DNA from: an uncultured Gammaproteobacteria bacterium
Lineage (GTDB): Bacteria; Patescibacteriota; Microgenomatia; Levybacterales; UBA12049
NCBI GenBank assembly: GCA_964549385.1
Contig: CAZJVI010000002.1
Location: forward strand, 1 to 51,105
DNA: 51,105 nucleotides
Direction of reading: 5' to 3'
The notes beneath the pieces are model-generated. The model had not been told where the DNA came from and made no database searches. It worked only from the letters and a program-made list of their open reading frames with translations. Shown one piece after another: positions 20,133 to 51,105 of this stretch. A program made the translations under genes and the position numbers. Position 1 is the first letter of the stretch, and every line of letters begins with the position of its first letter.

Positions 20133-23100
20133 TCAATTGACCACAAAATTGAGTATCTTTCCGGGAACGAGGATAACTTTCTTTACGCCATTTTCCAAAA
20201 ACTTTTTCACATGCTCATCTTCTCTTGCTCTCTTCTCAAGCAATTCCTTATTACTTCCATCCGCTACTGACACATCCATTGTTACGCGCAATTTACCATT
20301 CACCTGAACGGCAATTGTCACACTATCTTTCTTCAAATATTTTTCATCATAAATTGGCCACTCACTAGTATGAATAGAATGGAACCCTGTTCCCCGTTCC
20401 CTATTCCCTATTCCCTGATACAACTCCTCCGTCATATGCGGCGCAAATGGTGCCAAAAGTTTTAAGTAAACTTCCACTTCTTCTCTACTCAAGCTTTCCT
20501 GTTTTGCCAAAAAATTATAGTACGTCATAAGCTTTGCAATCGAAGTATTAAACCGCAAATTCTCCATATCCTCAGTAATCCCTTTGATCGTTTCATGCAT
20601 CATCTTCAAACTTTCCCTATTCTCTAGTCCCTGTTCCCCGTTCCCTGCTCCCTGCAACAACTTCCACACTCTCTTCAAAAAGCGGCTCATACCATCAATT
20701 CCACTGTCTCTGAAATCGCCGCCTTGATTAAATGGTCCCAAAAACAAAAGATACGTTCTCAAAGTGTCAGCACCGTATTTGCGGATATAATCATCAGGAT
20801 TGATGACATTGCCTTTACTTTTACTCATCTTTGAACCGTCTTTGATAATCAAACCATGAGCATAGAACCTCGTGAACGGCTCTTCGAAATCAACATATCC
20901 CATGTCCTTCAGTGCCATCATGAGGAATCGTGAGTAAAGCAAATGCAGAACAGAATGCTCAGCTCCACCGATATATGAAGTCACTGGTAACCAAACTCTT
21001 CTCTTTTCAGCACTTTCAATTTCACCCTTTGTAGCGCCTTTAAATTCTTGAGCTTTTTCTTTTGGCATTGGGAATGGAATATGTTTCAAATCCGTTGCCA
21101 AGTACCGTAAGAAATACCATGCGGAATCCAAAAAGGTATCTGAAACATCAGTTTCTCGAATTGCTTTGCCACCACAGTGTGGACATGTCGTCTCATAAAA
21201 TTCTGGATGATTCGCAAGCGGTGCTTTGCCCGTACCAAGCGGCTTGAAATTTTTAATGTATGGCAATAACACTGGCAAATTCTCTTCTGGGTACCAGCCG
21301 AGATTGTGAACCTCAACTTCTGGAAATTCCTCAAGAATTGTTGGGAATTCAAGAATGCCAGCACCAGCATTGAAATGTCCATGCTTTTTGAAAACTTTTA
21401 CTCGCGGGTTCAAAACGGTATATGTCTTTTCAACAGACAACGGAATATATGGATCATCATCTGAGAGATACAAAACTGTCTGGTTCACTGATTTTGCAAC
21501 ATCGTTAAGTTTCGCAGTTGATTTATTGAATGTCTTAATCACCTTTTCAGCATGATAGTATCCAGCTTTTCGCAATACTTCCCAATTTTTCTCGCCTTGT
21601 TCTTTTGCAGTTGGTGCAACAAGAATCAATTTCTCAACCGATAATTTACTTTGTCGGATAAATTCAATAGCAGTTGGCGCACCGAGACTGTGTGCAACAA
21701 TCGATACAGTATCTTTTTTTGTGATGCCGAGTTTTTTTAACGCGCCAGTCCACTCTGCAAGCGTTGGTGTATCTGCATTAGGCAAATCAGGAATGATAAC
21801 ATCATATCCCTTTGTTTCGATGAGCTTTTTAAACCAAGGGAGCCAATTCTCTTCACTGTTGCCTCCTAGTCCATGAAGCAATAGAACCTTAGGTTTTCTC
21901 TTTGCACATTCCGCACAATAAATCATTGGAATTGGCGGCCCCCAATATCTTTGACGTGAAATCAACCAATCTCGCAAATGATAGGTCACTTCCCTTTTAC
22001 CATATCCTTCCTTTTCAATATGATCCATGATCACAACAGTTGCTTTATGAATATCCATACCGTTTAAGAAACCTGAGTTGATCATCTTTCCTTCTTCTTC
22101 CTGTACTTGCTCTATTTTTATAATGGGAGAATCATCGTCATCTTTGCCCACAACAACTCGAATAATTTCTAGACCAAACTTCGTCGCAAACTCAAAGTCT
22201 CTTTTATCATGTCCAGGAACTCCAACCAGTGCACCGGTCCCAAAACCACCAAGAACGAAATCAGAAACCCAAATCGGCATCTGATATCCGGTCAAAGGAT
22301 TCATTGCATATAATCCAGTAAAGACACCTGTCTTTTCTTTCCCTTCTGCTTGTCGTTCTATTTCCGACTTGTTCATCGCTTTATCAACATATTGTTGGAT
22401 TTTCTTCACTAATTGAGCATCAGTTTTGACTACACCTTTTAATATCTTTGAAACGAGTTCATGCTCAGGAGCAAGTGCGATAAATGTTGCACCGAAGTTA
22501 GTGTCAGGTCGTGTTGTAAAAATTGTAACAGTTTCATTACTATCGGCGATTTTATATGTTATGTTAATTCCTTCTTTCTTTCCTATCCAATTTTTCTGTG
22601 CAAGTCGCACCTTTTCACTCCAATTCAAATCTTTAATATTATTGAGCAAAGGTTCAGCGTACTTCGTGATTTTGAAAAACCATTGTTCAAGATCTCTCTT
22701 CTCAACAATACTGCCGCAGCGTTCACACTGCCCATCAATCACTTGTTCATCAGATAAAACGGTCTTACATGATGGGCAAAAATTAACCGGAGAGTTTTTC
22801 TTATAAGCCAAACCTGATTTAAAAAGTTGTACAAAGATCCATTGAGTCCAGCGGTAATATTCAGGATCATAAGTCTCCAATTTATTTTTCCAGGCAAAAG
22901 CATTTCCTGTTTCATGTAATTGTCTATAAAAGTTTTTCTCCGTCCTCTTTGCGTGATCTACAGGATGGTCATTTGTTTTGATTGCATGGTTCTCGGAGTG
23001 AATGCCAAACCCATCAAGACCCATTGGTTGGAAAACCTCATACCCCATCATCCTCTTAAATCGACCAAATGCATCAACTCCTCCTGAAGTGTAACTAAAT

Positions 23101-23348
23101 CCGACATGTAACCCTTCTGCTGATGGATATGGGAACATCATCAAATTATAATAAAGTGTGCGTGACCTTTTGCTCTTCTTTTTAGCCTCGTTTACTGAAG
23201 CCCTTGAAGCTGATGGAGCCTTAGCAGTATCGAAGTCAGGCTGATAGATACCCTCCTTCCCCCATTTAGCTTGCCATTTCGGCTCAATCGTTAAATGGTC
23301 ATAACTTTTTTTCTTAATATTTTTTGTTTTAGCTTTATTTGTGCTCAT
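20133..23348 (-). CDS. leuS: Leucyl-tRNA synthetase with a nested alpha/beta serine-hydrolase domain
   Basis: CP1 editing motif TTRPDTNFGATF, KMSKSKGN, RQRYWGPPIPM and RETDVSDTFLDSAWYFLRY. It is 1071 aa long because of insertions (see findings). Confidence 0.92.
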   Translation of the reverse strand: MSTNKAKTKNIKKKSYDHLTIEPKWQAKWGKEGIYQPDFDTAKAPSASRASVNEAKKKSKRSRTLYYNLMMFPYPSAEGLHVGFSYTSGGVDAFGRFKRMMGYEVFQPMGLDGFGIHSENHAIKTNDHPVDHAKRTEKNFYRQLHETGNAFAWKNKLETYDPEYYRWTQWIFVQLFKSGLAYKKNSPVNFCPSCKTVLSDEQVIDGQCERCGSIVEKRDLEQWFFKITKYAEPLLNNIKDLNWSEKVRLAQKNWIGKKEGINITYKIADSNETVTIFTTRPDTNFGATFIALAPEHELVSKILKGVVKTDAQLVKKIQQYVDKAMNKSEIERQAEGKEKTGVFTGLYAMNPLTGYQMPIWVSDFVLGGFGTGALVGVPGHDKRDFEFATKFGLEIIRVVVGKDDDDSPIIKIEQVQEEEGKMINSGFLNGMDIHKATVVIMDHIEKEGYGKREVTYHLRDWLISRQRYWGPPIPMIYCAECAKRKPKVLLLHGLGGNSEENWLPWFKKLIETKGYDVIIPDLPNADTPTLAEWTGALKKLGITKKDTVSIVAHSLGAPTAIEFIRQSKLSVEKLILVAPTAKEQGEKNWEVLRKAGYYHAEKVIKTFNKSTAKLNDVAKSVNQTVLYLSDDDPYIPLSVEKTYTVLNPRVKVFKKHGHFNAGAGILEFPTILEEFPEVEVHNLGWYPEENLPVLLPYIKNFKPLGTGKAPLANHPEFYETTCPHCGGKAIRETDVSDTFLDSAWYFLRYLATDLKHIPFPMPKEKAQEFKGATKGEIESAEKRRVWLPVTSYIGGAEHSVLHLLYSRFLMMALKDMGYVDFEEPFTRFYAHGLIIKDGSKMSKSKGNVINPDDYIRKYGADTLRTYLLFLGPFNQGGDFRDSGIDGMSRFLKRVWKLLQGAGNGEQGLENRESLKMMHETIKGITEDMENLRFNTSIAKLMTYYNFLAKQESLSREEVEVYLKLLAPFAPHMTEELYQGIGNRERGTGFHSIHTSEWPIYDEKYLKKDSVTIAVQVNGKLRVTMDVSVADGSNKELLEKRAREDEHVKKFLENGVKKVILVPGKILNFVVN

Positions 23349-23704: not shown

Positions 23705-24460
23705 ATGAATACCCTAAGAATTCCAAAAAACAGTTCTTATCAATTAGTACCCCATACAATTATTATTTGTTTATTTGCTTATTTGTTTATTTGTTTATTC
23801 CCAACGCATGCGTTGGGTGATACTCTTTCGAATGGCAGTTATTCTATTAATGTCGGAAATATCGATACCAATCCCCAACCAACACAAAGACCAAAACAAA
23901 CATCTCAAGTTCTTGGAACTTCAGCACCTCAACCGGAATTCACTACCGGACCCAATTATACCGTAAACACTTCCAATGATTCGCTGTCAATAAATACGTC
24001 ACAAAATACCATTGACTATGGCATCCTTTCTTCTACAAATCCTGTTACCAGAATATCCAACATTTCATTTTCGAATTCGCAATTTGGCGCTGAAATACTT
24101 ACCTATGAAAATCGTCCATTGGAAACAATAAAAAATGATATTATTCAAAATACCAGTTGTGATGATGGCGATTGTTCTTCCTTTACAGCTGCTGTCTGGA
24201 CTAACACTTTGACTTATGGATTCGGATATCGTTGCGACAGTCAAGACTCGACACTTTGTGATCCACAATTTGCAAATGCAGATTATTTTAAGCAATATCC
24301 TGAAGATTCACTAGATGAGCTTGCCGAACCATTATTAATCAGTAATCATAGCAGTCATACAAACAAAGCCGTCGTAACATATAAAGTTAACATCCCAGGC
24401 ACACAAAAACCCGGCGCATACTATAATAGTATAACGTATCTAGCAGTGCCGGGATTCTAA
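23705..24460 (+). CDS. Secreted protein with a WxL-like C terminus (tentative)
   Basis: GGAGG precedes the ATG. Signal peptide ...ICLFPTHALG. The C-terminal GAYYNSITYLAVPGF resembles the distal WxL motif region of Firmicutes surface proteins. Confidence 0.4.
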   Translation: MNTLRIPKNSSYQLVPHTIIICLFAYLFICLFPTHALGDTLSNGSYSINVGNIDTNPQPTQRPKQTSQVLGTSAPQPEFTTGPNYTVNTSNDSLSINTSQNTIDYGILSSTNPVTRISNISFSNSQFGAEILTYENRPLETIKNDIIQNTSCDDGDCSSFTAAVWTNTLTYGFGYRCDSQDSTLCDPQFANADYFKQYPEDSLDELAEPLLISNHSSHTNKAVVTYKVNIPGTQKPGAYYNSITYLAVPGF

Positions 24461-24486
24461 GATAAAAAATAAATCGTGATGTATCT

Positions 24487-25599
24487 ATGAAAACGCAAAA
24501 ATACCCATTCGACAAGCTCAGGATCCTGAGTCAACCGAAAGACACTTCATCATACAAAAATAATAAATTTCCTCTACTCTTTTCTTCATTTGCCATTTGC
24601 CTTACCCTCTACTTCTCACTTCCGACTTTACAATTCACACCGCCTATTTATGCAGATGGAACATCTATCGAGGTTTCTCCATCTGTTTTGAAAATACAAG
24701 CCAAACCTCCGACAGATGTTTGGGCGCCTTTCATAATTAAAAATCAAAGTGATCAACAAGTTGAGCTGACAATTGGATATAAGGCAATTGATCCGCAGGC
24801 ATCTCAAAATGGCGCTGTTGTATTTCTAAAAAATGGAGAACCGGTTTCAGGTCAAGACAAAAAAATTTTTCAAAAAATGCAAATTGTCGATAACAACAAC
24901 ACTTCCCAAAATACACTCTTGCTCGGACCAAAACAATCCACCCGTCTAAGGTTACATATCATTCTTCCTGCCAATGAGCCAAGCAGTGATTACTATTTTT
25001 CTTTAATCTTTCTTCAAAACACCTCGGAAATTAATCAAAATATTACAAATAAAAACAATAGTGATCAATCTAGTATCTCAATACTTCAAACAGGGATTGC
25101 ATTAAATGTTTTGCTGGCTGTTGGAGATCAAGAAAATGCTCAAGGAACTATCAATACATTCAGTACTCCGTTCCTCCGAGAAGCAGGTCCTGTTCCCTTC
25201 GATCTTACTGTTTTTAACAGCGGTGCACATTTTATCTCCCCACATGGTCAAATACTCGTAAAAAACATGTTTGGACAAGCTATCGGCAAAATTACAATTC
25301 CTTCAACTACTATCCTTGCAGGTACAGGAAGAACCCTTACCAATAATGTCTTTGCCAATCCTTCTTTATATGGTTCATCTAACGCCTCTTTACAGAATTC
25401 AACCACATTGATCTGGCCTGAAAATTTTCTTTTGGGCAGGTATACAGCCACGCTATCACTTACTCTTTCATCAAATGGCCCAACATATACAAGAACAATT
25501 CAATTCTTTGCGCTTCCTGTTAATTATTTATTGAATATTAGCATTGGACTAGTAATCCTTTTACTCATCTATTTGAGGTTAAAGAAAAAAATGTCATGA
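24487..25599 (+). CDS. DUF916/DUF3324-like cell-surface protein with a C-terminal TM anchor (tentative)
   Basis: Signal sequence, Ig-like region SIEVSPSVLKIQAKPPTDVWAPFIIKNQSDQQVELTIGY, and C-terminal TM helix LLNISIGLVILLLIYLRLKKK. The pairing with a WxL-like gene mirrors WxL loci. Confidence 0.4.
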   Translation: MKTQKYPFDKLRILSQPKDTSSYKNNKFPLLFSSFAICLTLYFSLPTLQFTPPIYADGTSIEVSPSVLKIQAKPPTDVWAPFIIKNQSDQQVELTIGYKAIDPQASQNGAVVFLKNGEPVSGQDKKIFQKMQIVDNNNTSQNTLLLGPKQSTRLRLHIILPANEPSSDYYFSLIFLQNTSEINQNITNKNNSDQSSISILQTGIALNVLLAVGDQENAQGTINTFSTPFLREAGPVPFDLTVFNSGAHFISPHGQILVKNMFGQAIGKITIPSTTILAGTGRTLTNNVFANPSLYGSSNASLQNSTTLIWPENFLLGRYTATLSLTLSSNGPTYTRTIQFFALPVNYLLNISIGLVILLLIYLRLKKKMS

Positions 25600-27025
25600 G
25601 GCTTACAAACAAGATTAGCTTTGAATAAACCTAATTTTCTATTTATAGTTATTACAATAACATTACTAATAAGATATAAACAGGCCTTCTAGCTCAAATA
25701 AAAGGCATCTTTGCTGTTTTAGCCTCAAAAACTAGTGTTTAGATTGTAAAATCAATATTTTTTTCACTTATCACTAGCAAACATAATTTGCTAATATTTT
25801 CCTTCTTTATGCCTACTTTGTTTCAATTCACTAAATAGTTAATTTGCTATAGTTATATCCAGCAAGATATCATAAATACATCAGGTAATATATAAAAATA
25901 TATCATTACGGAAAATAAAATTCATAATCCCTTTTCCTCGTTGCTAAATCAAAATTCCACTTCATTTAAACATGAAACAACCTCTAATTTCTAATTAAGA
26001 ACTATTATGCTTTTTATTAGGATAGCAATTCATTGGCTACGCTATTTCCAAGCAATTAAAAGATTATGATTGCTAAAATTCGTGCAAGTATATCAAACTA
26101 TAGACGAATAAAGTATAATTATCACTTATTAGCTCATTCGGTAATTAAATACAAGATATTTTTATTAACCGAATTAGCTATCGTTTATTTAAACTATAGG
26201 AAAATAGTCCTTTATGAAATAATTTTCTCTTTTTACATTAATTCCTGACAAAAAAACTGTCATCTTATGACTCATATTTGAGGCTAAGAGTTTTAAGTAA
26301 GTAAAAAAGTACTCCTATCTTCAAATTATTTTTCACAAGCTAAAAAATACGACGGTATAGTCTATTTTTTGGATATAGTATGTATTTGTAATACTTCTTA
26401 TATTAAATATAGGTATATCTGCTGCTTCTTGATGCTATTTATTTTTCTGCGAAACAAGCTAACGGCTCACCCATCATCTGTGCTAAAAATCTAAGCTTTA
26501 CACTGTTATATCAATACAAATGAGCTTTTCTATATGCTAGCATAAGAACCTTATCTGTGCCAATTTAGCACATCACTCTATATTACTTATTATAAAGAGA
26601 ATAAATCGCACCTATATGCAAAAAATCTATTACTTTTTACATTGCACAATAAATACCCCATATCTTTTAGACTTTATAAATAAAAAAATTATCTTAATGC
26701 AAAAACTTAATAAAAAAATTATTTAGCCTCAAAAATGTCTTATATAATAGAAAAATATATGAACATTTTTGTTTTCACAACCCTATCTTATGTTTTCATG
26801 AGCTTTTCACAGTGAATAATGAGGAGGAATCATTTTTTTATTATTTCAAATAATATCACACTGTATCAATTCAGTTTTTCCTGGCTTGACAATGTGTATG
26901 CAAGTTTTATATCCTGGAATTAATAAAGATAAACTCTATTGATAATCGGTATAATCAGTATAATCTCGAAGCTATACGAAATTTTCCAAGTGTAAAATTA
27001 ATAGACTTTTCACAGAGGTAAAAAC

Positions 27026-30000
27026 ATGGATATAGTAAAAGAATTTAAAAATCATTTACTGACACAAAAAAATCCGCCCAGTCATCTAACGATAAAGAAT
27101 TATCTTTCTGATGTAAGAAGGTTCTTTAATTGGTTTGAAAATACTTATCAAACACCTTTTAATCCGCAATGGCTTAACAAAGAAGTCATTTGTCGCTATC
27201 AGAATGAAATCCAATTAACAGGACAGAGTTCTCTCTCAGCAGCCAGTTCGATAAAACGATATCTTTCTTCTCTTCGCAAATTCACAAGCTTTCTAGAAGA
27301 ATCTGGAGCCATAAATACCAACCCGTTTTCACTCCTTCAACAAGTAGAGCCTCAAACTGATCCATTTTTCTTTAAAGAATTTAAAAATTATCTTTTCACC
27401 GAACACGCAAGCAGGCTAACAATAAAAAATTACCTTGCAGATCTTAGACAATTTATTGACTGGCTAGAACAAGTAACGAGTAAAGGTAATTCTGAAGCTA
27501 ATCAGCCTCAAAATAGCAATCTACTGCAATCGATTGATAATTACGTTTTGGAACAGTATAAGACAAGGCTCCTGAACGAAGCCAAACTCTCCCCTATATC
27601 CATTAACCGTAAACTTTCATCACTACGGAGATACGTACGATGGTTGAATGAAAAAGGAATACTCGAAGATATTCTTATCCAGCCATACTCAGAACCTGAA
27701 AATAAAAAAGTCGAAATCAAAGAAGAAAATCCGCCTGTTCAAGTGCAAATGCCTGAATTACCGTTAACGGTTTTGCAGGGAATGTCTGAAGAAGACGAAA
27801 AAATTAAAACCAATTATTCACGGTTTGCCCCTTTCAGATTGATGCAAAAAACTACAAAAGCTATCAATCTAGGTACTGATTTGCTATTTTTTGGTCCTAT
27901 AGCCCATGTTGCCGAAGCTATTCATTATTCAATCTGGAAAAGCGGAAAAAAAACAATTTTTGCGCCAGTAAAGACTATTCTTAAGACTTCTTCATATATT
28001 CCTACAGGAGTATCAGTCAAAACAATTATCCCAAAAGCATCAAGCATTATGCCACCACGATCTGCTAATTTAGCTTCGGTTTTGGACAAAATACAACAAT
28101 ATCGAATAGCTTCCAAGCCTGAAACAGTTCATAACTTTGCCAAAGCTCTCTATGCTCCTTTAAAACTTTCGACTCAAAGCATGGACTGGAAGCAAAAAGT
28201 TCTTTATCACATTCGATACACTAGACCAAACTGGTACAGAAACTATCATTCTTTTGCTTTTGTCCATTACTTACATATCGGCATTCTGATAATGGCAACA
28301 GTTATTTCAGGAGCTACTTTATTTATAACCTGGTATGGAACAGGCTCAAGCCAAAAACAAGCAGTTCTCGCAGCTCAAGACACTGCGCCACCACGGACAC
28401 TATCCTTCCAAGGAAGACTACTCGATAACACCGACACACCCATAACCGCAGAGACACCTCTGCGGTTTGCTCTGTATAATAGCCCCGCTGCATCAGGTGC
28501 TGCACTTCTTTGGCAAGAAACTCAAGATATCAAACCGGATCAAAACGGACACTTCACTGCAACTCTCGGTGAAAGAAATCGATTAGATCAAAATGTCTTC
28601 ACCAATAATCCTTCGCTTTATATTGGACTCACCGTAGGGAACAATCAAGAACTCACGCCTAGACAACAAATTCCAACGACCGAATATGCTGCTAATTCGC
28701 AAACTGTTGAAGGGCTCCCGCCTATCACTGATAATCCTGATGTAGCTCAAAATGTGCTTCTTGCCCTTGATTCTTCTGGCAATTTAACTATAGGTGGAAA
28801 CTCAAGCCATACCTTCCAGGCAACTGGAGGCCAATTTAGTATAATCGGTCAAACACTATCGCTTACTACAAACTCTGGATCAAATGGCGATATAAAAATT
28901 GCTCCTGACGGATCGGGAATTATTGATCTTGAAAAACCTATTCAAAATATATCAAACTATACCGGACCATCAGGTATCCCAGGTGCCCTGGAGGTCGATG
29001 ATTTACTGTCAGTTTTTGCTACCTCAAGTAGTCAATCAGCCCTTACTGTCAACCAAAACGGTACAGGCGAAATCATTAGCGGAAAGAGTCATGGAACTGA
29101 TAAATTCACCATTGATACCAATGGTAATGAGTTTATAAAGGGTAATCTTATCCTCGATGGTGATACTATAAACACTAATTCGACAGTCTTTGATATAGCA
29201 GGATCTAGTGTCAGGAGCCTTAGCATCGGCGATCATGCGTCTATTATTTCTTTGGGAGGATCAAGCGGCATCACATCAATCAATAATAGTTTGTCCGTTC
29301 AAGGATCTGTTACTGCCAATGGACTCATTACTGCTAATGCAGGACTAACTATCAGCTCGGGACAAAAATTAACACTTCCCGACTTTAGCCCGAATGGCAT
29401 TCCTTTCATCAATGGCAATAATCAAATGGTTCAAGATGCAGGAAGCTTTTCATGGGACGATGCAAATAAAATATTAAATGTTTTTGGAACGATGTGTGTT
29501 CAAGACAGCTCTACTACCTGTAATGCAAGCCCAGGAACAATTTATGCAGCTTCTTATCAAGCCGCACCTGCTGACCTTGCTGAGAATTATGTCTCATCAC
29601 AACAGCTTCAACCAGGCAATGTCGTCACTCTTGAAGGGCAAGGAAACACTGAAGCAATTCGTGAATCGACAACGCCTTACCAGAAAGAGCTTATCGGAAT
29701 CATATCAACTAAACCTGGAATTACTTTAAATTCTGATGCTAAAGCTGACTCGACTCATCTTTATGTTTATCCTGTCGCGCTCCAAGGGAGAGTCCCGGTG
29801 AAAATTTCAAGCATTAACGGTGCTATCAAAGCCGGAGATAATATCACCTCTTCTTCAATTCCTGGTGTTGCTATGGATGCAAGCGGCTCTGGACAAATCA
29901 TCGGTAAAGCTCTTGAATCCTATACTGATCCAAACCCTAACGATGTGGGTCAGATAATGGTTTTTGTGAACCTCTCCTCTCAAACATCTCCAACTGCAAT

Positions 30001-31405
30001 CACTGATAGTGGAAATATCATGGCTGCTAGCGAATCGGCAACAGTAAATGATAACACTACCCAAACCATGAATCAACCCATGAATTCAACCAATCTTGCA
30101 GAATTCCTCTCAAATATTGCAGGAACCATTCAATTGGGTGCAGTGCAAGTTCAAACACTAACAACACAGTCGCTTTCCGTCGCGACAGATAATATAACAA
30201 TCGGCGGTGAAACGCTTAAGGATTACATTACGCAGATTGTCGATCAGATAGTAGAACAGCGACTCAACAAACATCTAGCACAGATCCCTCAAAAGCCTCA
30301 GATTCTTAGCCCTGTTGCAAGTAATTCTGCTCAATTAGCAGATCAAAACATATCGCAATCGATAATACCAACGCAAAACGCCAGTCAAAGTGCTGCCGTA
30401 CAAACTGCAAACAATGGAAACGCAAGCCCCGCAGCGACCGTTGTATATAATATATATAATAGTATAGCGACACAAAGCGCAGAGGCAGCCACTATTTCTG
30501 CAACGCCGACCATTAGTCCAATACCAACGGCAGACGATACACAACTTCAGGCAAGTGATTCTGGAAATATCGACTCAGAAAATATTGATACCAATACTTT
30601 TGAGCCTGCCGCGAGTTTAAGTGGCCAATTACAAAATGTCCCAAATCTTCAAGCAAGCTTCGGCACATTCAATCAAGGGCTCGTGGCACTCGGCCCAACG
30701 AGCCTGACAGATGTCGGAGTACAAGGGACTATTTCAGTGAATAATAATTTAAAAATTACGGCTGACGCAATAAACACCATCGGCTCAAATCTCAATATCG
30801 AGCCGCTTCGTCAAGGCAATATTCTTTTCATGGGAGGATTAGTGGCAATTGACACGCAAGGCAACCTTCAGGTCAACGGCAATGCAGTCTTCTCACATAA
30901 CGTAGCTGTCAAAGGTGAGCTTGCCGCAGGCATTATCGCGCCTATTCCGAATAATGATCTTATTATCAACTTGAAAAATAAGGCAGACAAAACAGCTTCT
31001 TCACTTATTATTACCAATGCAACAGGCAGTGGCGTTTTGCAAATTAATCAATCTGGAGATCTGACTTCTTCAGGTGATGCGAAATTTAATTCTGTTGCAA
31101 GCAATGGCTTCTCAATTATCCGTGGTGCACAAGCTGATACTTCGATGACCGAAACTGTGGCTAATGGATCTGCAGGAACAGGAGTCATCAGTGCTTATGA
31201 GACGCAACGAACCATTATCACACAATTTGTAACTGCTCATTCACTTATTTATATTACGCCAACTTCAAATACTGATACTGTCACGCCCTATCTTGCCAGA
31301 CAAACAATTCAAGATCCAAACAATGGATCGCAAGGCTCGTTTACCGTTGAAATACCAACGAGCATAACAAAAGATATTGGATTTAATTGGTGGATAGTAA
31401 ATTAG
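27026..31405 (+). CDS. Giant single-pass membrane protein: two N-terminal integrase-type SAM-like (core-binding) domains, a TM helix and a roughly 1000-aa extracellular fibre/beta-helix-like region
   Basis: Repeated TIKNYLSDVRRFFNWFE...SIKRYLSSLRKF and TIKNYLADLRQFIDWLE...SINRKLSSLRRYVRWL. TM helix FVHYLHIGILIMATVISGATLFITWYG (about 28250-28336). Ser/Thr/Gly/Asn-rich exodomain with ADLAENY...GNVV. No tyrosine-recombinase catalytic domain. Confidence 0.55.
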   Translation: MDIVKEFKNHLLTQKNPPSHLTIKNYLSDVRRFFNWFENTYQTPFNPQWLNKEVICRYQNEIQLTGQSSLSAASSIKRYLSSLRKFTSFLEESGAINTNPFSLLQQVEPQTDPFFFKEFKNYLFTEHASRLTIKNYLADLRQFIDWLEQVTSKGNSEANQPQNSNLLQSIDNYVLEQYKTRLLNEAKLSPISINRKLSSLRRYVRWLNEKGILEDILIQPYSEPENKKVEIKEENPPVQVQMPELPLTVLQGMSEEDEKIKTNYSRFAPFRLMQKTTKAINLGTDLLFFGPIAHVAEAIHYSIWKSGKKTIFAPVKTILKTSSYIPTGVSVKTIIPKASSIMPPRSANLASVLDKIQQYRIASKPETVHNFAKALYAPLKLSTQSMDWKQKVLYHIRYTRPNWYRNYHSFAFVHYLHIGILIMATVISGATLFITWYGTGSSQKQAVLAAQDTAPPRTLSFQGRLLDNTDTPITAETPLRFALYNSPAASGAALLWQETQDIKPDQNGHFTATLGERNRLDQNVFTNNPSLYIGLTVGNNQELTPRQQIPTTEYAANSQTVEGLPPITDNPDVAQNVLLALDSSGNLTIGGNSSHTFQATGGQFSIIGQTLSLTTNSGSNGDIKIAPDGSGIIDLEKPIQNISNYTGPSGIPGALEVDDLLSVFATSSSQSALTVNQNGTGEIISGKSHGTDKFTIDTNGNEFIKGNLILDGDTINTNSTVFDIAGSSVRSLSIGDHASIISLGGSSGITSINNSLSVQGSVTANGLITANAGLTISSGQKLTLPDFSPNGIPFINGNNQMVQDAGSFSWDDANKILNVFGTMCVQDSSTTCNASPGTIYAASYQAAPADLAENYVSSQQLQPGNVVTLEGQGNTEAIRESTTPYQKELIGIISTKPGITLNSDAKADSTHLYVYPVALQGRVPVKISSINGAIKAGDNITSSSIPGVAMDASGSGQIIGKALESYTDPNPNDVGQIMVFVNLSSQTSPTAITDSGNIMAASESATVNDNTTQTMNQPMNSTNLAEFLSNIAGTIQLGAVQVQTLTTQSLSVATDNITIGGETLKDYITQIVDQIVEQRLNKHLAQIPQKPQILSPVASNSAQLADQNISQSIIPTQNASQSAAVQTANNGNASPAATVVYNIYNSIATQSAEAATISATPTISPIPTADDTQLQASDSGNIDSENIDTNTFEPAASLSGQLQNVPNLQASFGTFNQGLVALGPTSLTDVGVQGTISVNNNLKITADAINTIGSNLNIEPLRQGNILFMGGLVAIDTQGNLQVNGNAVFSHNVAVKGELAAGIIAPIPNNDLIINLKNKADKTASSLIITNATGSGVLQINQSGDLTSSGDAKFNSVASNGFSIIRGAQADTSMTETVANGSAGTGVISAYETQRTIITQFVTAHSLIYITPTSNTDTVTPYLARQTIQDPNNGSQGSFTVEIPTSITKDIGFNWWIVN

Positions 31406-31497: not shown

Positions 31498-31566
31498 ATA
31501 GTAAAGTTATCCTTGACATTATACAAAAAGAGTTGGTACAGTGGAAAGAGGTTTGTATTCCCTATT

Positions 31567-33762
31567 ATGCCTGAACGTAAGAAAAATTTTTCATCCTATT
31601 TAGAAAACGTAAGCCTTCTCATCGTTGGGATACTTTTTGTTCTTTTCCCAATCTTATTTCTTAGTACAACCACCGACGCATTTGTTGAACCAAAAGAATT
31701 CCTTCTCATCGCATTAAGCTCACTCGCTCTTCTTATCTTTGGCATTAAAACAATTGTTGAAGGACGATTACGATTGAGAAATTCACCATTTGGCCTTCCA
31801 ATGTTCTTATTTATTCTCATAACACTAGCTTCTGCAATCTTTAGCACCAACAAAGCTGATGCTTTAACAGCATTTGCCCCGATTCTCTTTGTAGGATTCC
31901 TCTATTTTGTCATTATTAATGTCGTAAGCAATCAAAAACAACTGCTCTTCCTGCTTGGCACACTTACCATTGGCGCAGTAGTTTCTTCACTGTTTACTCT
32001 CTTTTCATTCTTTAAGGTATATCTTTTGCCTTTTGCATACACGCATGCAACCTACTTCACCACGTTTGGTTCTCTTCTCGATCAAGCAATCTATTACGCA
32101 CTTATATTACCAATTGCAGGTTATTTCGGCTATGAATATATCAATCATATGAGTGATTCGAAAAGGTCAAATGGTTCACCGTTTTCAACTGAAGGAACTG
32201 CTCACCACAAAAAAGCTCCAATGTCCATGGGATTATTTGGTATCGGCTTTCTTATTATTGCAGTCGGACTTGGGCTTACTGTTTACATGCTCTTTACCAC
32301 TCAAAAGCCGTTGATTCTTCCTTTTGATATTGGTTTACAAACTGCTTTTGCGGCAATTTCACAAAACAACGTATTTAAGAGCCTGCTTCTTGGAAGTGGT
32401 TATGGCACATATCTTAATGATTTCACCATGTTTAAATCCGCAAGTTATAATGCCAACGATGCTTTATGGGCATTTACCTTTTTCCGCTCAAGCAGTTTTG
32501 CATTGGAACTTTTAGCAACAACAGGAATTCTTGGCATAGCTGTTTACGGAATGATCATCTACCGCGTGATAAAAGAAAAGAATTTCTTTCTTCCTCTCAT
32601 GTTGGCTCTGCTTGCTTCATTGGCACTCCCTTTTTCATTCACGCTTACAGGGCTTCTTTTTATTCTTTTATCTCTCTTTGCCGTTGTTTGTATACAAAAT
32701 AACCCGCAAAAATTCGGCGAAGCGGAATTCTCATTATTTGCTATAAAAAGAGGTCTTTTCTCTGCAGGATCGAGTGTCCATGCTCAACAAAATCCAACAG
32801 AGCGCAAAATTAGCAGAATCTTTCCCGTCATATTCTTCATTATTATACTAATAGTCTTGGCAGTACCATTGTACTTTTCAACAAGATTTATACTGTCTGA
32901 TGTTACTTTCCAACAGTCACTTGTCGCAGAATCGGAGAATAACGGCCTTGCAACATACCAACTGCAGACAGCTGCGATTACTATGTTTCCCTATAGAGAC
33001 ATTTACTATCGTTCTTTCTCTGACACCAATCTTGCACTTGCAAATGCTTTAGCGGTAAACCAGCCAAAGAATTCTTCTCCTAGTGCTCAGACACAAAAAG
33101 ACATCTTAACTCTTATTCAACAATCAATCAATGCAGGAAGAGCAGCTGTGACAATCGCACCAAACACCTCATTTGATTGGAATAATCTTTCATCTATTTA
33201 TAGAAGCCTTATCGGATTTGGTCAGAACGCAGACCAGTTCGCTGTTCTTACGCTAAACCAAGCAATTGCTCTCGATTCAAATAATCCGCAACAGTATATT
33301 AATTTAGGAGGGGTATATTATCAATTAGGTCAATATGATAATGCTATTCGTGAATTCACTATTGCTGTTAATCTCAAACCCAATTATGCAAATGCCTACT
33401 ACAATTTAGGACATGCTTATGCTCAAGAGGGACAATATACAAATGCCCTAACAGCATTCCAGACAGTAAAACAACTTGTTACCGGAGACGCAACAAATAC
33501 TAAACTGATTAATAATGATATAACTGCATTAAATAACCAAATTGCCGCTTCCAAAAATGGCAACAGTCAACCTGGTAAAAGCCCACAAGTAAGTCCTGTT
33601 CCGCAGAATGAACAACAACCAATTACGGTAAACAAATCCGGAACGACATTGCCTCCACACAATCCTAAAGAGAAAATCCCTGCACCAACCGTTTCAGTTC
33701 AAGGACCTACTCCATCAACAGCAACTACTACTCCAGCAGTTAGTCCAGCTCCAACTAAATAG
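31567..33762 (+). CDS. O-antigen ligase (Wzy_C)-like polytopic membrane protein with C-terminal TPR repeats
   Basis: At least 10 TM helices. TPR repeats YINLGGVYYQLGQYDNAIREFTIAVNLKPNYANAYYNLGHAYAQEGQYTNALTAF. The start is uncertain: TTG at 31513 or ATG at 31567. Confidence 0.55.
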   Translation: MPERKKNFSSYLENVSLLIVGILFVLFPILFLSTTTDAFVEPKEFLLIALSSLALLIFGIKTIVEGRLRLRNSPFGLPMFLFILITLASAIFSTNKADALTAFAPILFVGFLYFVIINVVSNQKQLLFLLGTLTIGAVVSSLFTLFSFFKVYLLPFAYTHATYFTTFGSLLDQAIYYALILPIAGYFGYEYINHMSDSKRSNGSPFSTEGTAHHKKAPMSMGLFGIGFLIIAVGLGLTVYMLFTTQKPLILPFDIGLQTAFAAISQNNVFKSLLLGSGYGTYLNDFTMFKSASYNANDALWAFTFFRSSSFALELLATTGILGIAVYGMIIYRVIKEKNFFLPLMLALLASLALPFSFTLTGLLFILLSLFAVVCIQNNPQKFGEAEFSLFAIKRGLFSAGSSVHAQQNPTERKISRIFPVIFFIIILIVLAVPLYFSTRFILSDVTFQQSLVAESENNGLATYQLQTAAITMFPYRDIYYRSFSDTNLALANALAVNQPKNSSPSAQTQKDILTLIQQSINAGRAAVTIAPNTSFDWNNLSSIYRSLIGFGQNADQFAVLTLNQAIALDSNNPQQYINLGGVYYQLGQYDNAIREFTIAVNLKPNYANAYYNLGHAYAQEGQYTNALTAFQTVKQLVTGDATNTKLINNDITALNNQIAASKNGNSQPGKSPQVSPVPQNEQQPITVNKSGTTLPPHNPKEKIPAPTVSVQGPTPSTATTTPAVSPAPTK

Positions 33763-37008: not shown

Positions 37009-37092
37009 TGGACCTACCGAGAATCGAACTCGGGACTGTGCAACCTGCCTGCCGGCAGGCAGGTGCGAATGTCGAAGATGTCGCCCACTTTG
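37009..37092 (-). pseudogene. tRNA-like remnant: intact T-arm plus 3' acceptor strand, with no matching 5' half. It contains a 20-nt perfect palindrome.
   Basis: The minus-strand reading ...ccgagttcgattctcgg taggtcc a gives a T-arm and acceptor 3' strand, but no complementary GGACCTA 5' strand and no canonical anticodon or D arm. The palindrome cctgcctgccggcaggcagg lies at 37044-37063. Confidence 0.45.
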
Positions 37093-37165
37093 TGGACCGA
37101 AGGAGACTCGAACTCCCCACCTCAGCAATGCGAATGCTGCGCTCTACCAGATGAGCTATCGGCCC
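37093..37165 (-). tRNA. tRNA-Ala (anticodon CGC)
   Basis: Hand-folded cloverleaf GGGCCGA UA GCUC AUCUGGUA GAGC G CAGCA UUCGCAU UGCUG AGGUG GGGAG UUCGAGU CUCCU UCGGUCC A. It has the G3:U70 identity pair. CCA is not encoded. Confidence 0.85.
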
Positions 37166-37304
37166 TAATTATATATTTTTATAAAATAAAACATCTGACT
37201 TTCACTCAATATGAACAGATGAACATATAATTTTATAGAGTCACACTCGACTACCTCGTCATTCTCTGCTTCTTAAATATAAGCTAGCGAAGCCGAGAAT
37301 GACT

Positions 37305-37378
37305 TGGTGGACCCGAAGGGAATCGAACCCTCTATTTCGCTATGCCATAGCGATGTGTTACCGGTATACCACGGGCCC
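37305..37378 (-). tRNA. tRNA-Ala (anticodon GGC), CCA encoded
   Basis: Acceptor GGGCCCG/CGGGUCC with G3:U70, anticodon arm UCGCU AUGGCAU AGCGA, and T-arm GAGGG UUCGAUU CCCUU. There is one A-C mismatch in the D stem. Confidence 0.8.
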
Positions 37379-40939: not shown

Positions 40940-41335
40940 TCAATTCCCATAAAGTTTTGGAATCTTTAATGATGATAGCCCATTCCCTGTAAAAAAGACA
41001 AGTACGGTGTTGACGATAAAAAATCCCAATAAAGAAATAACCAGTCCGATTATTGCTGCGAATAATCTCCCCCGTGCGGCTGCAACTTTTTGTTTATCGC
41101 CGCCAGATGTAATATATTGTACGCCGCCCCATACAAGGAAAATTAAGCAAATGAGAATCGCAATAATGAGAAGTAATTGGACAACAGCACCTACGATACC
41201 TCCTGCATGATTGGCATTTATATTGCACAAACTACTCCATGTCCCCGTCGGACAAAGTGGCTCATCTGCAAAAGCTGTTTGAGCAAAGCTCATTGTGGAA
41301 ACAATAATAGATAGACTGGCTGCAAACTTTTTCAT
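40940..41335 (-). CDS. Small membrane protein resembling TrbC/VirB2-type (T4SS-like) pilins
   Basis: Signal peptide ending AFA, two TM helices, and the motif WGGVQYITSGGDKQKVAAARGRLFAAIIGLVI that recurs in pilin-like proteins of small-genome bacteria. Confidence 0.45.
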   Translation of the reverse strand: MKKFAASLSIIVSTMSFAQTAFADEPLCPTGTWSSLCNINANHAGGIVGAVVQLLLIIAILICLIFLVWGGVQYITSGGDKQKVAAARGRLFAAIIGLVISLLGFFIVNTVLVFFTGNGLSSLKIPKLYGN

Positions 41336-49562: not shown

Positions 49563-49675
49563 TCCTGGCGATGACCTATTTTCCCACTAAAAAGCAGTAT
49601 CGTGAGCGCTGTTACGTTTCACTTCTCTGTTCGGAATGGGAAGAGGTGGTGCCATAACGCTTCAATCACCAGAAA
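49563..49675 (-). rRNA. rrf: 5S ribosomal RNA
   Basis: The minus-strand reading contains cccattccgaacagagaagtgaaacg, matching the conserved 5S loop. Helix I pairs ctggtgat with atcgccag. Ends are approximate to within a few nt. Confidence 0.85.
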
Positions 49676-49705
49676 GTTTTTGTTAGTAATGTTAATGAGC
49701 AAGAA

Positions 49706-49773
49706 CTAGGTAATTAGGTGTCAGGTGCTAGGTTCTAGAAAATATTTTTTCTAATACCTAGTCCCTATAACCT
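49706..49773. repeat. Family A heptad-phased palindromic element in the 23S-5S spacer
   Basis: ctaggtaattaggtgtcaggtgctaggttctagaaaatattttttctaatacctagtccctataacctag, followed by the perfect hairpin tagcgagc-ata-gctcgcta. Confidence 0.8.
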
Positions 49774-49819
49774 AGCGAGCATAGCTCGCTAAAAAGTGAA
49801 GAGATAGTCTTTAAAAATT

Positions 49820-51105
<1,286 letters not shown>

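Follow-up and report, generated by a model that had tools for sequence, protein, structure and literature searches.

A Levybacteria membrane protein with tandem Xer-type core-binding domains and a phage-tail-fibre-like exodomain

One gene in the window (the whole 51,105-nucleotide stretch of DNA analysed) encodes a 1459-residue protein. It most likely serves as a fibre, probably trimeric, that is anchored in the membrane and binds a host or surface. Its architecture, to which a high degree of confidence can be attached, topology included, consists of two Xer-type core-binding domains (CBx2) inside the cell, a single transmembrane (TM) helix and a phage-tail-fibre-like fibre on the surface (Table 1). 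The best explanation of the protein as a whole, held at slightly better than even confidence, is a membrane-anchored fibre with a DNA-binding cytoplasmic tail. No published description of the CBx2-TM-fibre architecture was found in the searchable literature, and it may still fairly be called unexplained.

Table 1. Features of the fibre gene and its surroundings, in positions of the window
Feature	Residues	Positions	Strand	Evidence or remarks
Neighbour p251, secreted, remote relative of CPR Pam-pilus pilin		23705..24460	+	NF058581
Neighbour p370, signal peptide, ~300 aa, then C-terminal TM anchor		24487..25599	+	upstream in 54/59 loci
AT-rich upstream non-coding region		25600..27025	+	26.5% GC; 1.4 kb
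Whole gene	1459 aa	27026..31405	+	bitopic, type II (N-in/C-out), with CBx2, linker, TM and fibre in this order
Core-binding (SAM-like) domain 1	1-105	27026..27340	+	Pfam PF02899; pLDDT >90; Foldseek XerA/IntI/XerD; family median pI 9.7
Core-binding (SAM-like) domain 2	113-215	27362..27670	+	Pfam, AlphaFold2, Foldseek; internal duplicate of domain 1
Acidic disordered linker	216-262	27671..27811	+	pLDDT <50; 7-30% identity; pI 4.5
Basic juxtamembrane cytoplasmic region	263-408	27812..28249	+	conserved; net +14; dN/dS 0.075
Single TM helix	409-438	28250..28339	+	hydropathy; helix 411-437 at pLDDT 85-95
Membrane-proximal beta-sandwich base domain	~456-555	28391..28690	+	NF053851; pLDDT 77-90
Conserved proximal shaft	556-700	28691..29125	+	51-75% identity family-wide; low monomer pLDDT
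Variable distal shaft	701-848	29126..29569	+	20-55% identity, 12-23% gaps
Intramolecular-chaperone domain, phi29 gp12 D4 / Peptidase_G2 type	849-985	29570..29980	+	Foldseek 3gqh; profile vs PDB; weak PF11962
Post-chaperone segment	986-1235	29981..30730	+	helices predicted ~1023-1037, 1064-1085; then low-complexity S/T/A/P/Q-rich spacer
Conserved C-terminal beta-rich region	1236-1459	30731..31402	+	40-76% identity
Downstream neighbour, ~9-10-TM membrane domain and C-terminal TPR repeats		31513..33762	+	conserved downstream in L003, L005, L086

Gene integrity and family

The open reading frame is intact, with a ribosome-binding site (AGAGG) 7 nt 5′ of the ATG. Contigs obtained independently, from ENA and from JGI, encode an identical 1459-residue protein, DNA of the gene is present in at least 20 rhizosphere DNA runs and the same architecture is found in more than 100 full-length homologues; consequently, the frame is not an assembly fusion. 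A survey of the fusion's phylogenetic distribution, as proposed in an earlier, sequence-only reading of this DNA, returned a family of ~185 clusters in 237 species genomes, where all informative names are those of Levybacteria or Patescibacteria. The gene is conserved across the ultrasmall Levybacteria (CPR/Patescibacteria), gene order is conserved among relatives, and dN/dS values of 0.08–0.16 in every region (0.13 in the core-binding domains) indicate that it is under purifying selection.

Cytoplasmic module and topology

Phage_int_SAM_1 matched the N-terminal 225 residues with an E value of 4e-22 (cutoff 22.3 bits) and was placed twice, at residues 4–92 and 117–210, together with SAM_4 and SAM_5, as the sequence-only reading had expected. 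The NCBIfam models for XerC, XerD and XerA matched over the first ~100 positions only. Both domains were modelled by AlphaFold2 with pLDDT above 90 and resemble, in Foldseek searches, the core-binding domains of XerA, IntI, XerD, lambda Int and Cre. When the two are aligned, 39 of 115 columns are identical, with invariant polar and basic residues that match in position between the repeats (T-x-K-N-Y and N-R-K-L-S-S-L-R); those invariant in domain 2 are N194, R195, K196, S198 and R201. The catalytic Phage_integrase domain of Pfam had no match in the protein even at E ≤ 1, in line with the earlier reading. The protein is not the ‘integrase’ of its database label, nor any other recombinase.

Hydropathy revealed exactly one strong TM segment, at the place given before (~28250–28336) and extending to 28339, and no N-terminal signal peptide was found. 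The loop preceding the helix carries, as a mean of 103 homologues, 16.2 Lys and Arg residues versus 3.9 Asp and Glu, and the first 100 residues past it are acidic, from which the N-terminal 408 residues are assigned to the cytoplasm by the positive-inside rule. With SAM-like domains supported, the N terminus predicted to lie inside and no fusion in the assembly, the sequence-only reading stands on all three counts. A second, weaker hydrophobic segment at residues 277–300, stronger in some homologues, has a charge context that favours an in-plane or amphipathic helix, and the juxtamembrane region contains a long amphipathic helix (268–306) and the invariant motif R400-P-x-W-Y-x-x-Y-H408.

Both core-binding domains are basic, with family median pI values of 9.7 and 9.6 and a pI above 8 in 95–99% of members. 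Whether they bind DNA appears evenly balanced. Core-binding domains normally clamp DNA together with a catalytic domain, and we know of no case in which they act as an autonomous regulator. The protein could instead be an anchored adhesin and nothing more, in which CBx2 has lost nucleic-acid binding and now forms a cytoplasmic protein-protein platform for oligomerisation, for docking an export or assembly factor, or for polar localisation. A precedent is bitopic RodZ, where the HTH domain binds MreB and not DNA. Consistent with such a platform, no stand-alone regulatory DNA binders are known among core-binding domains, a search upstream of the gene in relatives gave no conserved operator-like motif, and the conserved, basic juxtamembrane region with its invariant motif suggests a specific membrane-proximal interaction; moreover, across the ~185 clusters the cytoplasmic module is constant and always N-terminal while the exodomain ranges from ~1.3 to 6 kaa, which fits a generic role in anchoring or assembly. 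However, the basic character of both domains in nearly all members, the polar and basic residues retained in the helices with the family-defining Xer core-binding motifs, and a long, acidic and flexible tether of ~45 residues between them and the membrane, as expected for a domain that reaches a cytoplasmic ligand, speak against the platform, and the adhesin-only reading is on balance rather unlikely.

Fibre exodomain and predicted processing

The exodomain of ~1020 residues is rich in Ser (10.7%), Thr (10.4%), Asn (9.1%) and Gly (8.7%), as already remarked from the sequence, with a net charge of −43. Its suspected tail-fibre character was borne out by 77 matches to viral tail, fibre or appendage structural proteins at E ≤ 1e-3 and by a gp12-type chaperone domain. 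The base domain is a remote relative of the N-domain of Bdellovibrio MAT fibres, the architecture of which served for comparison (PMC10769870); NF053851 was matched by 24 of 27 members with a best E value of 2.4e-10, below cutoff. The exodomain is a fibre of the phage-tail or Bdellovibrio MAT-like kind, for which a fibre or adhesin role is likely. The AlphaFold monomer model is poor except for three domains (mean pLDDT 57.7). The proximal shaft carries the motif LALDSSGNLTIGG...FQATGG..., and the distal shaft, the most variable folded segment, sits directly N-terminal to a predicted cleavage site and is a candidate for the receptor-binding tip. Longer members insert other modules upstream of the chaperone domain, such as the ConA-like lectin domains found there in one giant member.

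The chaperone domain was matched by Foldseek to gp12 D4 (3gqh), and its profile identified gp12 in the PDB with an E value of 3.9e-8. The invariant catalytic motif D850-x-A-E-x-Y (D850, A852, E853 and Y855) aligns exactly with DFAEYF, the start of the post-cleavage crystal fragment 3gqh, and this alignment makes autocleavage between A849 and D850 (nt 29570–29575) a reasonably probable prediction. In gp12, D4 serves as an autochaperone on which trimerisation depends, and the mature virion lacks it (bioRxiv 10.1101/216911; PMC9863714), and the intramolecular chaperones of both gp12 and S74 proteins are discarded after folding (PMC10769870; PMC9863714). Whereas the chaperone is C-terminal in those proteins, here it is internal with a conserved region of ~470 residues behind it, so that the processing logic may differ. 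In some homologues an S74 chaperone (PF13884) replaces the G2 type, and in homologue P0192 it ends ~510 residues from the C terminus, similar to the present protein. The chain closes with a beta-sandwich at residues 1375–1459 (...FNWWIVN; pLDDT 84–90 over the last ~85 residues), and no significant match to region 1236–1459 was found in Pfam or the PDB.

A conserved autoproteolytic motif inside the exodomain, and not at its end, would also suit contact-gated release of the Notch or RsgI kind. The autocleaved fragments would stay non-covalently joined until a pull by the host stripped off the C-terminal one, and intramembrane proteolysis of the stub would then free CBx2 as a soluble DNA-binding factor. 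A sequence of extracellular autoproteolysis and then regulated intramembrane proteolysis is established in RsgI/sigma-I, Notch and adhesion GPCRs; the region past the cleavage site is conserved, and so likely kept for a purpose, and the cytoplasmic tether is flexible. Nevertheless, release of this kind is improbable, since the locus shows neither a site-2 protease nor a partner, the scheme is conjectural throughout, its second cleavage included, and the gp12 and S74 precedents involve simple disposal of the chaperone.

Genomic context and proposed function

The 1.4-kb non-coding region noted earlier upstream of the gene is real and its size is maintained in close relatives. It includes conserved blocks at 26086–26227 and 26720–27025 and a promoter-like core at 26939–26986 (TTGATA...TATAAT). 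A search ahead of the gene in relatives gave no consistent DNA motif. The 11-mer TTAGCCTCAAA recurs, and these genomes are enriched in it, but without positional tie to the gene. Further upstream, p251 matched NF058581 across the full model (E 8e-8, below cutoff), as did 5 of 5 orthologues, and a gene of this type precedes the fibre gene in 47 of 59 loci. Its neighbour p370 is a putative chaperone from architecture and position alone, PamC and PamD chaperones of similar architecture having been described (bioRxiv 10.64898/2026.03.03.709456); profiles gave no support for p370 as a chaperone. A tail fibre-like protein has been remarked to co-localise with pam operons (same preprint). The downstream gene, taken for an O-antigen ligase in the sequence-only reading, gave no O-antigen-ligase or Wzy signal and encodes the TPR membrane protein of Table 1. 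That reading had not included the autoproteolytic intramolecular chaperone, the MAT-like base, the conserved C-terminal module or the adjacent Pam-pilus-like pilin and chaperone.

It had suggested that contact at the surface might be linked to the capture of DNA, in a region with ComEA and ComEC, and both of these do lie ~4–8 kb upstream, in the window as in relatives. The com genes are, however, on the opposite strand with leuS between them and the cluster, and their proximity is not specific, since the region as a whole, with unrelated genes far downstream (LytR_C, LysM/M23, Rho), keeps its gene order across Levybacteria. DNA taken up through ComEC reaches the cytoplasm as a single strand, whereas duplex DNA is the ligand of core-binding domains, and those found here are cytoplasmic modules of the double-strand type. 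The directly adjacent same-strand genes, those of the Pam-like pilin and chaperone, are of pilus and not competence type and offer the more relevant context; a role in DNA capture or uptake is very improbable. Finally, a mis-assembled or decaying frame in which an integrase gene is joined to a prophage tail-fibre gene, suggested by the phage-like exodomain and by database names such as ‘site-specific integrase’, ‘XerD’ and ‘tail fiber domain-containing protein’, is, like a mobile-element remnant, refuted by the identical gene in independent assemblies and runs, its fixed genomic position, a dN/dS of ~0.1 throughout, the family-wide architecture and the lack of any catalytic-domain remnant.

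Taken together, the protein is no recombinase; it would be the anchor and fibre component, specific to Levybacteria, of a locus for a cell-surface appendage. By analogy with homologous systems, the chaperone domain would drive trimerisation outside the cell and then cut the chain at A849|D850, leaving a membrane-anchored trimeric fibre (1–849), the variable distal end of which would bind a host or surface receptor, and a C-terminal fragment (850–1459) that would be released or retained as a cap. The fibre would act together with the Pam-like pilin and the putative chaperone encoded next to it. The most economical reading of the anchored fibre with a DNA-binding tail would be a membrane-tethered DNA-binding protein of ToxR/CadC type, its working mode being likened to that of these one-component transmembrane regulators. 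Depending on how far the exodomain is assembled or occupied, the cytoplasmic domains might cluster, and so bind DNA, differently, although such regulatory coupling is a tentative proposal. With less confidence than for the fibre itself, the six core-binding domains of each trimer may bind DNA and would thereby tie the appendage to the nucleoid, physically or informationally.

Cytoplasmic module and membrane topology

The open reading frame is intact, with a ribosome-binding site (AGAGG) 7 nt 5′ of its ATG, and encodes a protein of 1459 residues. A Pfam search with the first 225 residues matched Phage_int_SAM_1 (PF02899) twice, at residues 4–92 and 117–210 (E 4e-22), with SAM_4 and SAM_5 as further matches in the same region. 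Alignment to the NCBIfam models XerC, XerD and XerA is limited to approximately their first 100 positions, those of XerC and XerD being covered from ∼2 to 100 of ∼295 positions, with 61–74 bits against cutoffs of about 330 bits. The catalytic domain (PF00589), which carries the R-K-H-R-H/W-Y active site, had no hit in the protein at E ≤ 1 in the Pfam and NCBIfam profile searches. The protein is therefore not a recombinase, and on this profile evidence the pipeline names "site-specific integrase" and "XerD" borne by many family members are wrong, because the catalytic domain is absent.

Both N-terminal domains, here called the core-binding domains, were modelled by AlphaFold2 from a 56-sequence alignment with pLDDT >90, and their structural matches in Foldseek are the core-binding domains of XerA, the integron integrase (IntI), XerD, lambda Int and Cre. 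The tandem SAM-like domains described in the sequence-only reading, and the missing catalytic domain, are thereby borne out. One of the two domains is an internal duplicate of the other, identical in 39 of 115 alignment columns, and polar and basic residues (T-x-K-N-Y and N-R-K-L-S-S-L-R) are conserved in both repeats. Family-wide, the median pI is 9.7 for domain 1, 9.6 for domain 2 and 4.5 for the linker, and net charge is +14 in the juxtamembrane region and −7 at the base of the ectodomain.

The Porphyromonas gingivalis ribosome-associated "RaiA" (PDB 9i5v chain 14, about 400 residues), which also has an N-terminal Xer-type SAM-like domain, matched the profile of the present family with an E-value of 1.6e-6 and is another core-binding domain joined to a non-recombinase partner. 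As a clue to the function of the core-binding domains this hit was rejected, being a 400-residue fusion with 34 residues modelled in the structure.

Hydropathy revealed one strong transmembrane segment (residues 409–438), in agreement with the single helix proposed earlier. The N terminus is hydrophilic and includes no signal peptide, and a cytoplasmic region of 408 residues precedes the transmembrane signal-anchor. In 103 homologues, the loop that leads from a weaker hydrophobic segment (residues ∼260–300) to the main helix contains a mean of 16.2 Lys + Arg versus 3.9 Asp + Glu, and the first 100 residues beyond the helix are net acidic. This charge bias places the N terminus in the cytoplasm, and the predicted topology is N-in/C-out, a classic signal-anchor arrangement. 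The segment at residues 277–300, which lies within one long modelled helix (residues 268–306), was considered as a second, topology-flipping transmembrane helix and rejected, as its hydropathy is <1.3, it is amphipathic and the loop that follows is strongly Lys/Arg-rich family-wide; it is provisionally read as an in-plane or peripheral helix.

Contigs from ENA and JGI both encode this protein with identical sequence, which removes the earlier concern of an assembly fusion of two genes, and near-identical DNA was found in at least 20 rhizosphere metagenome runs. A word-indexed search returned 201 homologues, many of them full length, with identity down to 34%, and an exhaustive search with the cytoplasmic 445 residues returned 185 clusters at E ≤ 1e-30. 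In these clusters the module of two core-binding domains and transmembrane helix is always N-terminal, in proteins of about 1,300 to 6,048 residues. Giant members with the same N terminus include P0177 (6048 residues), P0206 (5432), P0192 (4991), P0233 (4391) and P0167 (4036). Relatives are encoded in 237 species-representative genomes, including closed chromosomes of 1.1–1.6 Mb, and the informative names among these are exclusively Levybacteria, Levyibacteriota or Patescibacteria. Relative to an 82%-identical orthologue, dN/dS is 0.08–0.16 in every region and 0.13 in the core-binding domains. Taken together, the independent assemblies, metagenome runs, clusters, genomes and dN/dS values rule out an assembly chimera or a prophage remnant. 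The locus was present in no RNA run searched, and no account of this architecture turned up in searches of the literature.

The exodomain and its internal chaperone

The ∼1020 residues beyond the membrane are Ser/Thr/Asn/Gly-rich with a net charge of −43. Compared with predicted structures, the model of this exodomain had 77 hits at E ≤ 1e-3 among Caudovirales tail, fibre, pre-neck-appendage and Mtd-N proteins; both composition and matches uphold the tail fibre-like character first noticed in the sequence. The exodomain was modelled as a monomer, with low pLDDT in the shaft; to judge from its chaperone domain and its similarity to viral fibres, the fibre would be trimeric. At its base, residues ∼456–555 form a confidently modelled β-sandwich. 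The Bdello_MAT_N model (NF053851), from the mosaic adhesive trimer (MAT) fibres of Bdellovibrio, is matched by 24 of 27 diverse family members (best E 2.4e-10), the matches spanning just model positions ∼7–78 of 162 and all falling below the 60-bit NCBI curated cutoff.

Residues ∼845–985, modelled at pLDDT 82–93, match the C-terminal fragment of phi29 gp12 (PDB code 3gqh) in Foldseek with an E-value of 3e-4, a probability of 1.0 and a TM-score (target) of 0.57. β-Tulip capsid decoration proteins are also matched, and the tandem β-tulip fold of gp12 domain D4 is present. A profile of this domain alone, searched against the PDB, matched gp12 with an E-value of 3.9e-8; the Dpo31 tailspike was a further hit, through its chaperone domain. 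PF11962 scores 18.5 bits on the protein (E 1.4e-3), below the gathering threshold of 25, and a precomputed PF11962 hit is present in many homologues. In phi29, D4 is an autochaperone that is needed for trimerisation and absent from the virion (bioRxiv 10.1101/216911; PMC9863714). The motif [AG]-D-x-A-E-x-[YF], invariant in the family and represented here by Asp850, Ala852, Glu853 and Tyr855, aligns with DFAEYF, the first residues of the crystallised post-cleavage fragment 3gqh, and autocleavage is accordingly predicted by homology at the Ala849–Asp850 bond.

The domain thus shares with phi29 gp12 (D4/Peptidase_G2; 3gqh, 3suc) its fold, a detectable sequence homology, a location C-terminal to a fibre or spike region and an invariant D-x-A-E-Y/F motif at the exact autocleavage position. 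It differs in that the chaperone is not C-terminal, the host protein is cellular and membrane-anchored, and cleavage is a prediction. In other family members an S74 chaperone replaces the G2 type; that of P0192, at residues 4425–4478, ends ∼510 residues before the C terminus. Such swapping of analogous modules speaks for a functional need for trimerisation and cleavage in that part of the protein. An internal, interchangeable (G2 or S74) chaperone followed by a conserved module departs from the tailspike rule of a C-terminal chaperone that is discarded.

Residues 701–848, directly before the predicted cleavage site, are the least conserved folded part of the protein (20–55% identity, with gaps), and in P0192 two ConA-like lectin domains precede the S74 domain. 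A receptor-binding tip would be expected to look like this, and the region is a candidate for one. After the chaperone follow predicted helices, a low-complexity Ser/Thr/Ala/Pro/Gln spacer and a well conserved β-rich region, ending in a confidently modelled β-sandwich with the sequence …FNWWIVN. No significant Pfam or PDB match was found for this C-terminal region. It was rejected as a T4 gp34 repeat (E 0.14, non-significant) and as pilin-like (hhalign probability of 0.05 against the neighbouring pilin).

Genomic setting

Gene order is kept in relatives at 37–82% identity, with ComEC, ComEA and leucyl-tRNA synthetase on the minus strand followed by a plus-strand cluster of p251, p370, a non-coding gap, the fibre gene and a polytopic TPR protein. 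Of 59 species loci, 54 have a p370 homologue upstream of the fibre gene on its own strand, and 47 have one of p251. ComEA and ComEC, noted earlier as neighbours of possible relevance to the fibre protein, lie on the opposite strand, beyond leuS. The collinearity of the region in the lineage extends well past the cluster, which makes their nearness unspecific. The leucyl-tRNA synthetase carries an α/β-hydrolase insert (residues ∼487–672; PF06821 Ser_hydrolase, E 1e-18) after its editing domain; some orthologues have the insert (those of L005 and L086), others lack it (the 903-residue enzyme of L003 and the 871-residue enzyme of L004).

Coordinates of features in the window
Feature	Position (nt)	Strand	Description
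Leucyl-tRNA synthetase	20133–23348	−	1071 aa
p251	23705–24460	+	secreted neighbour
p370	24487–25599	+	neighbour with C-terminal transmembrane helix
p251 and p370	23705–25599	+	putative Pam-like pilus gene pair
Upstream gap	25600–27025		26.5% GC
Conserved block (island, approximate limits)	26086–26227		143 nt
Conserved block	26720–27025		
49-nt core	26939–26986		TTGATA...TATAAT
11-mer TTAGCCTCAAA	25719, 26277(−), 26723, 35883, 39399(−)		
Fibre gene	27026–31405	+	1459 aa
TPR membrane protein	31513–33762	+	conserved downstream
tRNA-Ala genes	37092–37378		two, adjacent
Small T4SS-pilin/Mbov_0395-like conjugal pilin gene	40940–41335	−	
23S (partial) and 5S rRNA pair	49563–51105	−	end of the window

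The product of p251 is secreted and has six cysteines, four of which are invariant in its family. Together with four of four orthologues it matches CPR_Pam_pilin_C (NF058581), from the Pam pilus system of CPR bacteria, with E-values between 8e-8 and 0.023, the alignments generally spanning the whole model and always scoring below the 55-bit cutoff. The p370 product has a signal peptide and a C-terminal transmembrane helix with a basic tail, and had no profile or PDB sequence match; its architecture is that of PamC and PamD, which are membrane-anchored PapD-like chaperones (Troman et al., bioRxiv 10.64898/2026.03.03.709456). By these profile and architectural similarities, the two genes resemble a minimal pair of Pam-like pilus genes in Levybacteria. 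A "tail fibre-like protein" is consistently co-localised with pam operons in the same preprint, where it is uncharacterised and integrase-like domains are unmentioned (bioRxiv 10.64898/2026.03.03.709456). The present gene is comparably placed, directly downstream of a Pam-pilin-like gene and a gene of PamC/D architecture; the comparison is one of gene neighbourhood, the protein of the preprint being from Saccharimonadia and the present family from Levybacteria.

The downstream neighbour has ∼9–10 transmembrane segments and TPR repeats. Its description as a TPR membrane protein stands, whereas the O-antigen-ligase label attached to it in the sequence-only reading was dropped, as no O-antigen-ligase signal was detected. 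The membrane part had no match in Pfam, NCBIfam or PDB sequences. Speculatively, this protein might modify the Ser/Thr-rich fibre, for example by glycosylation.

The gap before the fibre gene, singled out as unusual in the sequence-only reading, keeps a size of 1.4–1.6 kb in close relatives and contains two conserved blocks. The first of these, an island with 82% identity to the closest relative, above that of its flanks, overlaps a 60-residue ORF whose reading frame is not conserved. The small ORFs called in the gap (60, 66 and 72 residues) are not homologous between relatives, and Rfam gave no hit in the gap at E ≤ 1; possibly the island is an RNA or a regulatory element not yet described. 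Within the second block, the 49-nt core is still recognisable in a relative at 45% protein identity.

The 11-mer TTAGCCTCAAA is enriched in the window, with eight matches (≤1 mismatch) versus 1.8 expected, three of them exact and within the gap, and 13 exact matches occur in 11 of the other Levybacteria loci compared (L003–L078). In those loci it is scattered, with no fixed position relative to the fibre gene, and it was rejected as an autoregulatory operator; a lineage-specific signal in regulation, termination or uptake is conceivable. No conserved operator upstream of the fibre gene was found across relatives, nor any evidence for the gap as a target of the fibre protein itself. Most simply, the gap is a large promoter, leader or regulatory region.

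Relation to known systems and functional models

The fibres most comparable to this protein are the MATs of Bdellovibrio, in which a conserved β-rich domain of ∼130 residues after the signal peptide is believed to lie at the cell surface, beneath a trimeric mosaic fibre (Caulton et al. 2024; PMC10769870). A conserved, cell-proximal, β-rich base domain is probably common to both (a remote but family-wide likeness, in 24 of 27 members and always below the NCBI cutoff). Both also have a long fibre of phage-like type whose distal part is mosaic and swappable, an intramolecular chaperone, which in many homologues is likewise S74, and a proposed recognition of another cell's surface. In contrast, MATs have a cleavable signal peptide and no cytoplasmic part, where the present protein has a 408-residue cytoplasmic module and a transmembrane anchor. 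Its chaperone is internal, followed by a conserved region of ∼470 residues, and is of the G2 (gp12) type rather than the S74 of the MAT comparison, and the host is a monoderm-type CPR bacterium rather than Bdellovibrio.

On the cytoplasmic side, each N-terminal domain is a bona fide core-binding bundle of four to five helices, with XerC and XerD as the best profiles; unlike XerC, XerD and XerA, the protein lacks a catalytic domain, carries two core-binding domains in tandem and has them tethered to the membrane. Bitopic regulators of the ToxR, CadC and TcpP type have an N-terminal cytoplasmic domain of DNA-binding type, a single transmembrane helix and a C-terminal extracytoplasmic domain. The present protein has the same layout, by analogy and not by membership, with a core-binding fold versus their winged helix and a fibre of more than 1000 residues versus their small sensor domain. 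DNA binding and transcriptional control by the protein are putative.

Starting from the domain composition, the charge-biased topology, the chaperone homology with its kept cleavage motif, the pattern of conservation, the distribution and the synteny, the following mechanism can be proposed. The exodomain would be exported via the signal-anchor, would trimerise with guidance from the chaperone domain and would be cut at Ala849–Asp850. Cleavage would leave a membrane-anchored fibre whose variable distal end may bind a host or surface ligand, while the conserved C-terminal fragment might be released, kept as a cap or engaged with the Pam-like pilus. Six basic core-binding domains would be presented on flexible acidic tethers at the cytoplasmic side.

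For these domains a membrane-tethered DNA-binding role is favoured, though unproven, either like that of a ToxR-type regulator or as a nucleoid tether, because the conserved charge, the polar and basic residues conserved in both repeats and the purifying selection are consistent with DNA binding having been retained. In the main rival reading, the core-binding domains have been re-used as a protein-interaction platform. Far less probable, and the most novel of the readings compatible with the data, is a contact- or force-gated transmembrane signalling device with Notch/RsgI-like release, which would be without precedent in bacteria. Here the fibre tip would bind a host cell, the autocleaved C-terminal fragment would be a removable cap, and either its removal or a pull on the fibre would alter the clustering of the six core-binding domains or lead to proteolytic release. 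The tandem domains would act as a single-chain XerC-XerD pair on a bipartite, possibly dif-like, chromosomal site, such that attachment would reprogram transcription or a defined region of the chromosome would be tethered to the attachment site.

Tail-fibre or MAT-like fibres, G2 or S74 chaperones and bitopic DNA-binding membrane proteins are all known kinds. What is new is the fusion of tandem recombinase core-binding domains lacking a catalytic domain to a fibre, the internal position of the chaperone before a conserved module, and a conserved Levybacteria gene family beside Pam-like pilus genes; no report was found of recombinase core-binding domains without a catalytic domain that are duplicated and membrane-tethered under a fibre. 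The names "site-specific integrase" and "XerD" inflate the counts of mobile elements and recombinases in CPR genomes, and a correction is due.

A large part of bacterial diversity, for the most part uncultured, belongs to the CPR/Patescibacteria, which are believed to live in attachment to other cells. The family described here is a lineage-wide conserved Levybacteria surface fibre beside genes that resemble those of the newly described Pam-type pilus, and provides a concrete molecular target for the surface biology of an uncultured lineage. If its core-binding domains bind DNA, it would constitute a new class of membrane-tethered DNA-binding protein, in which an external appendage is linked directly to the chromosome.
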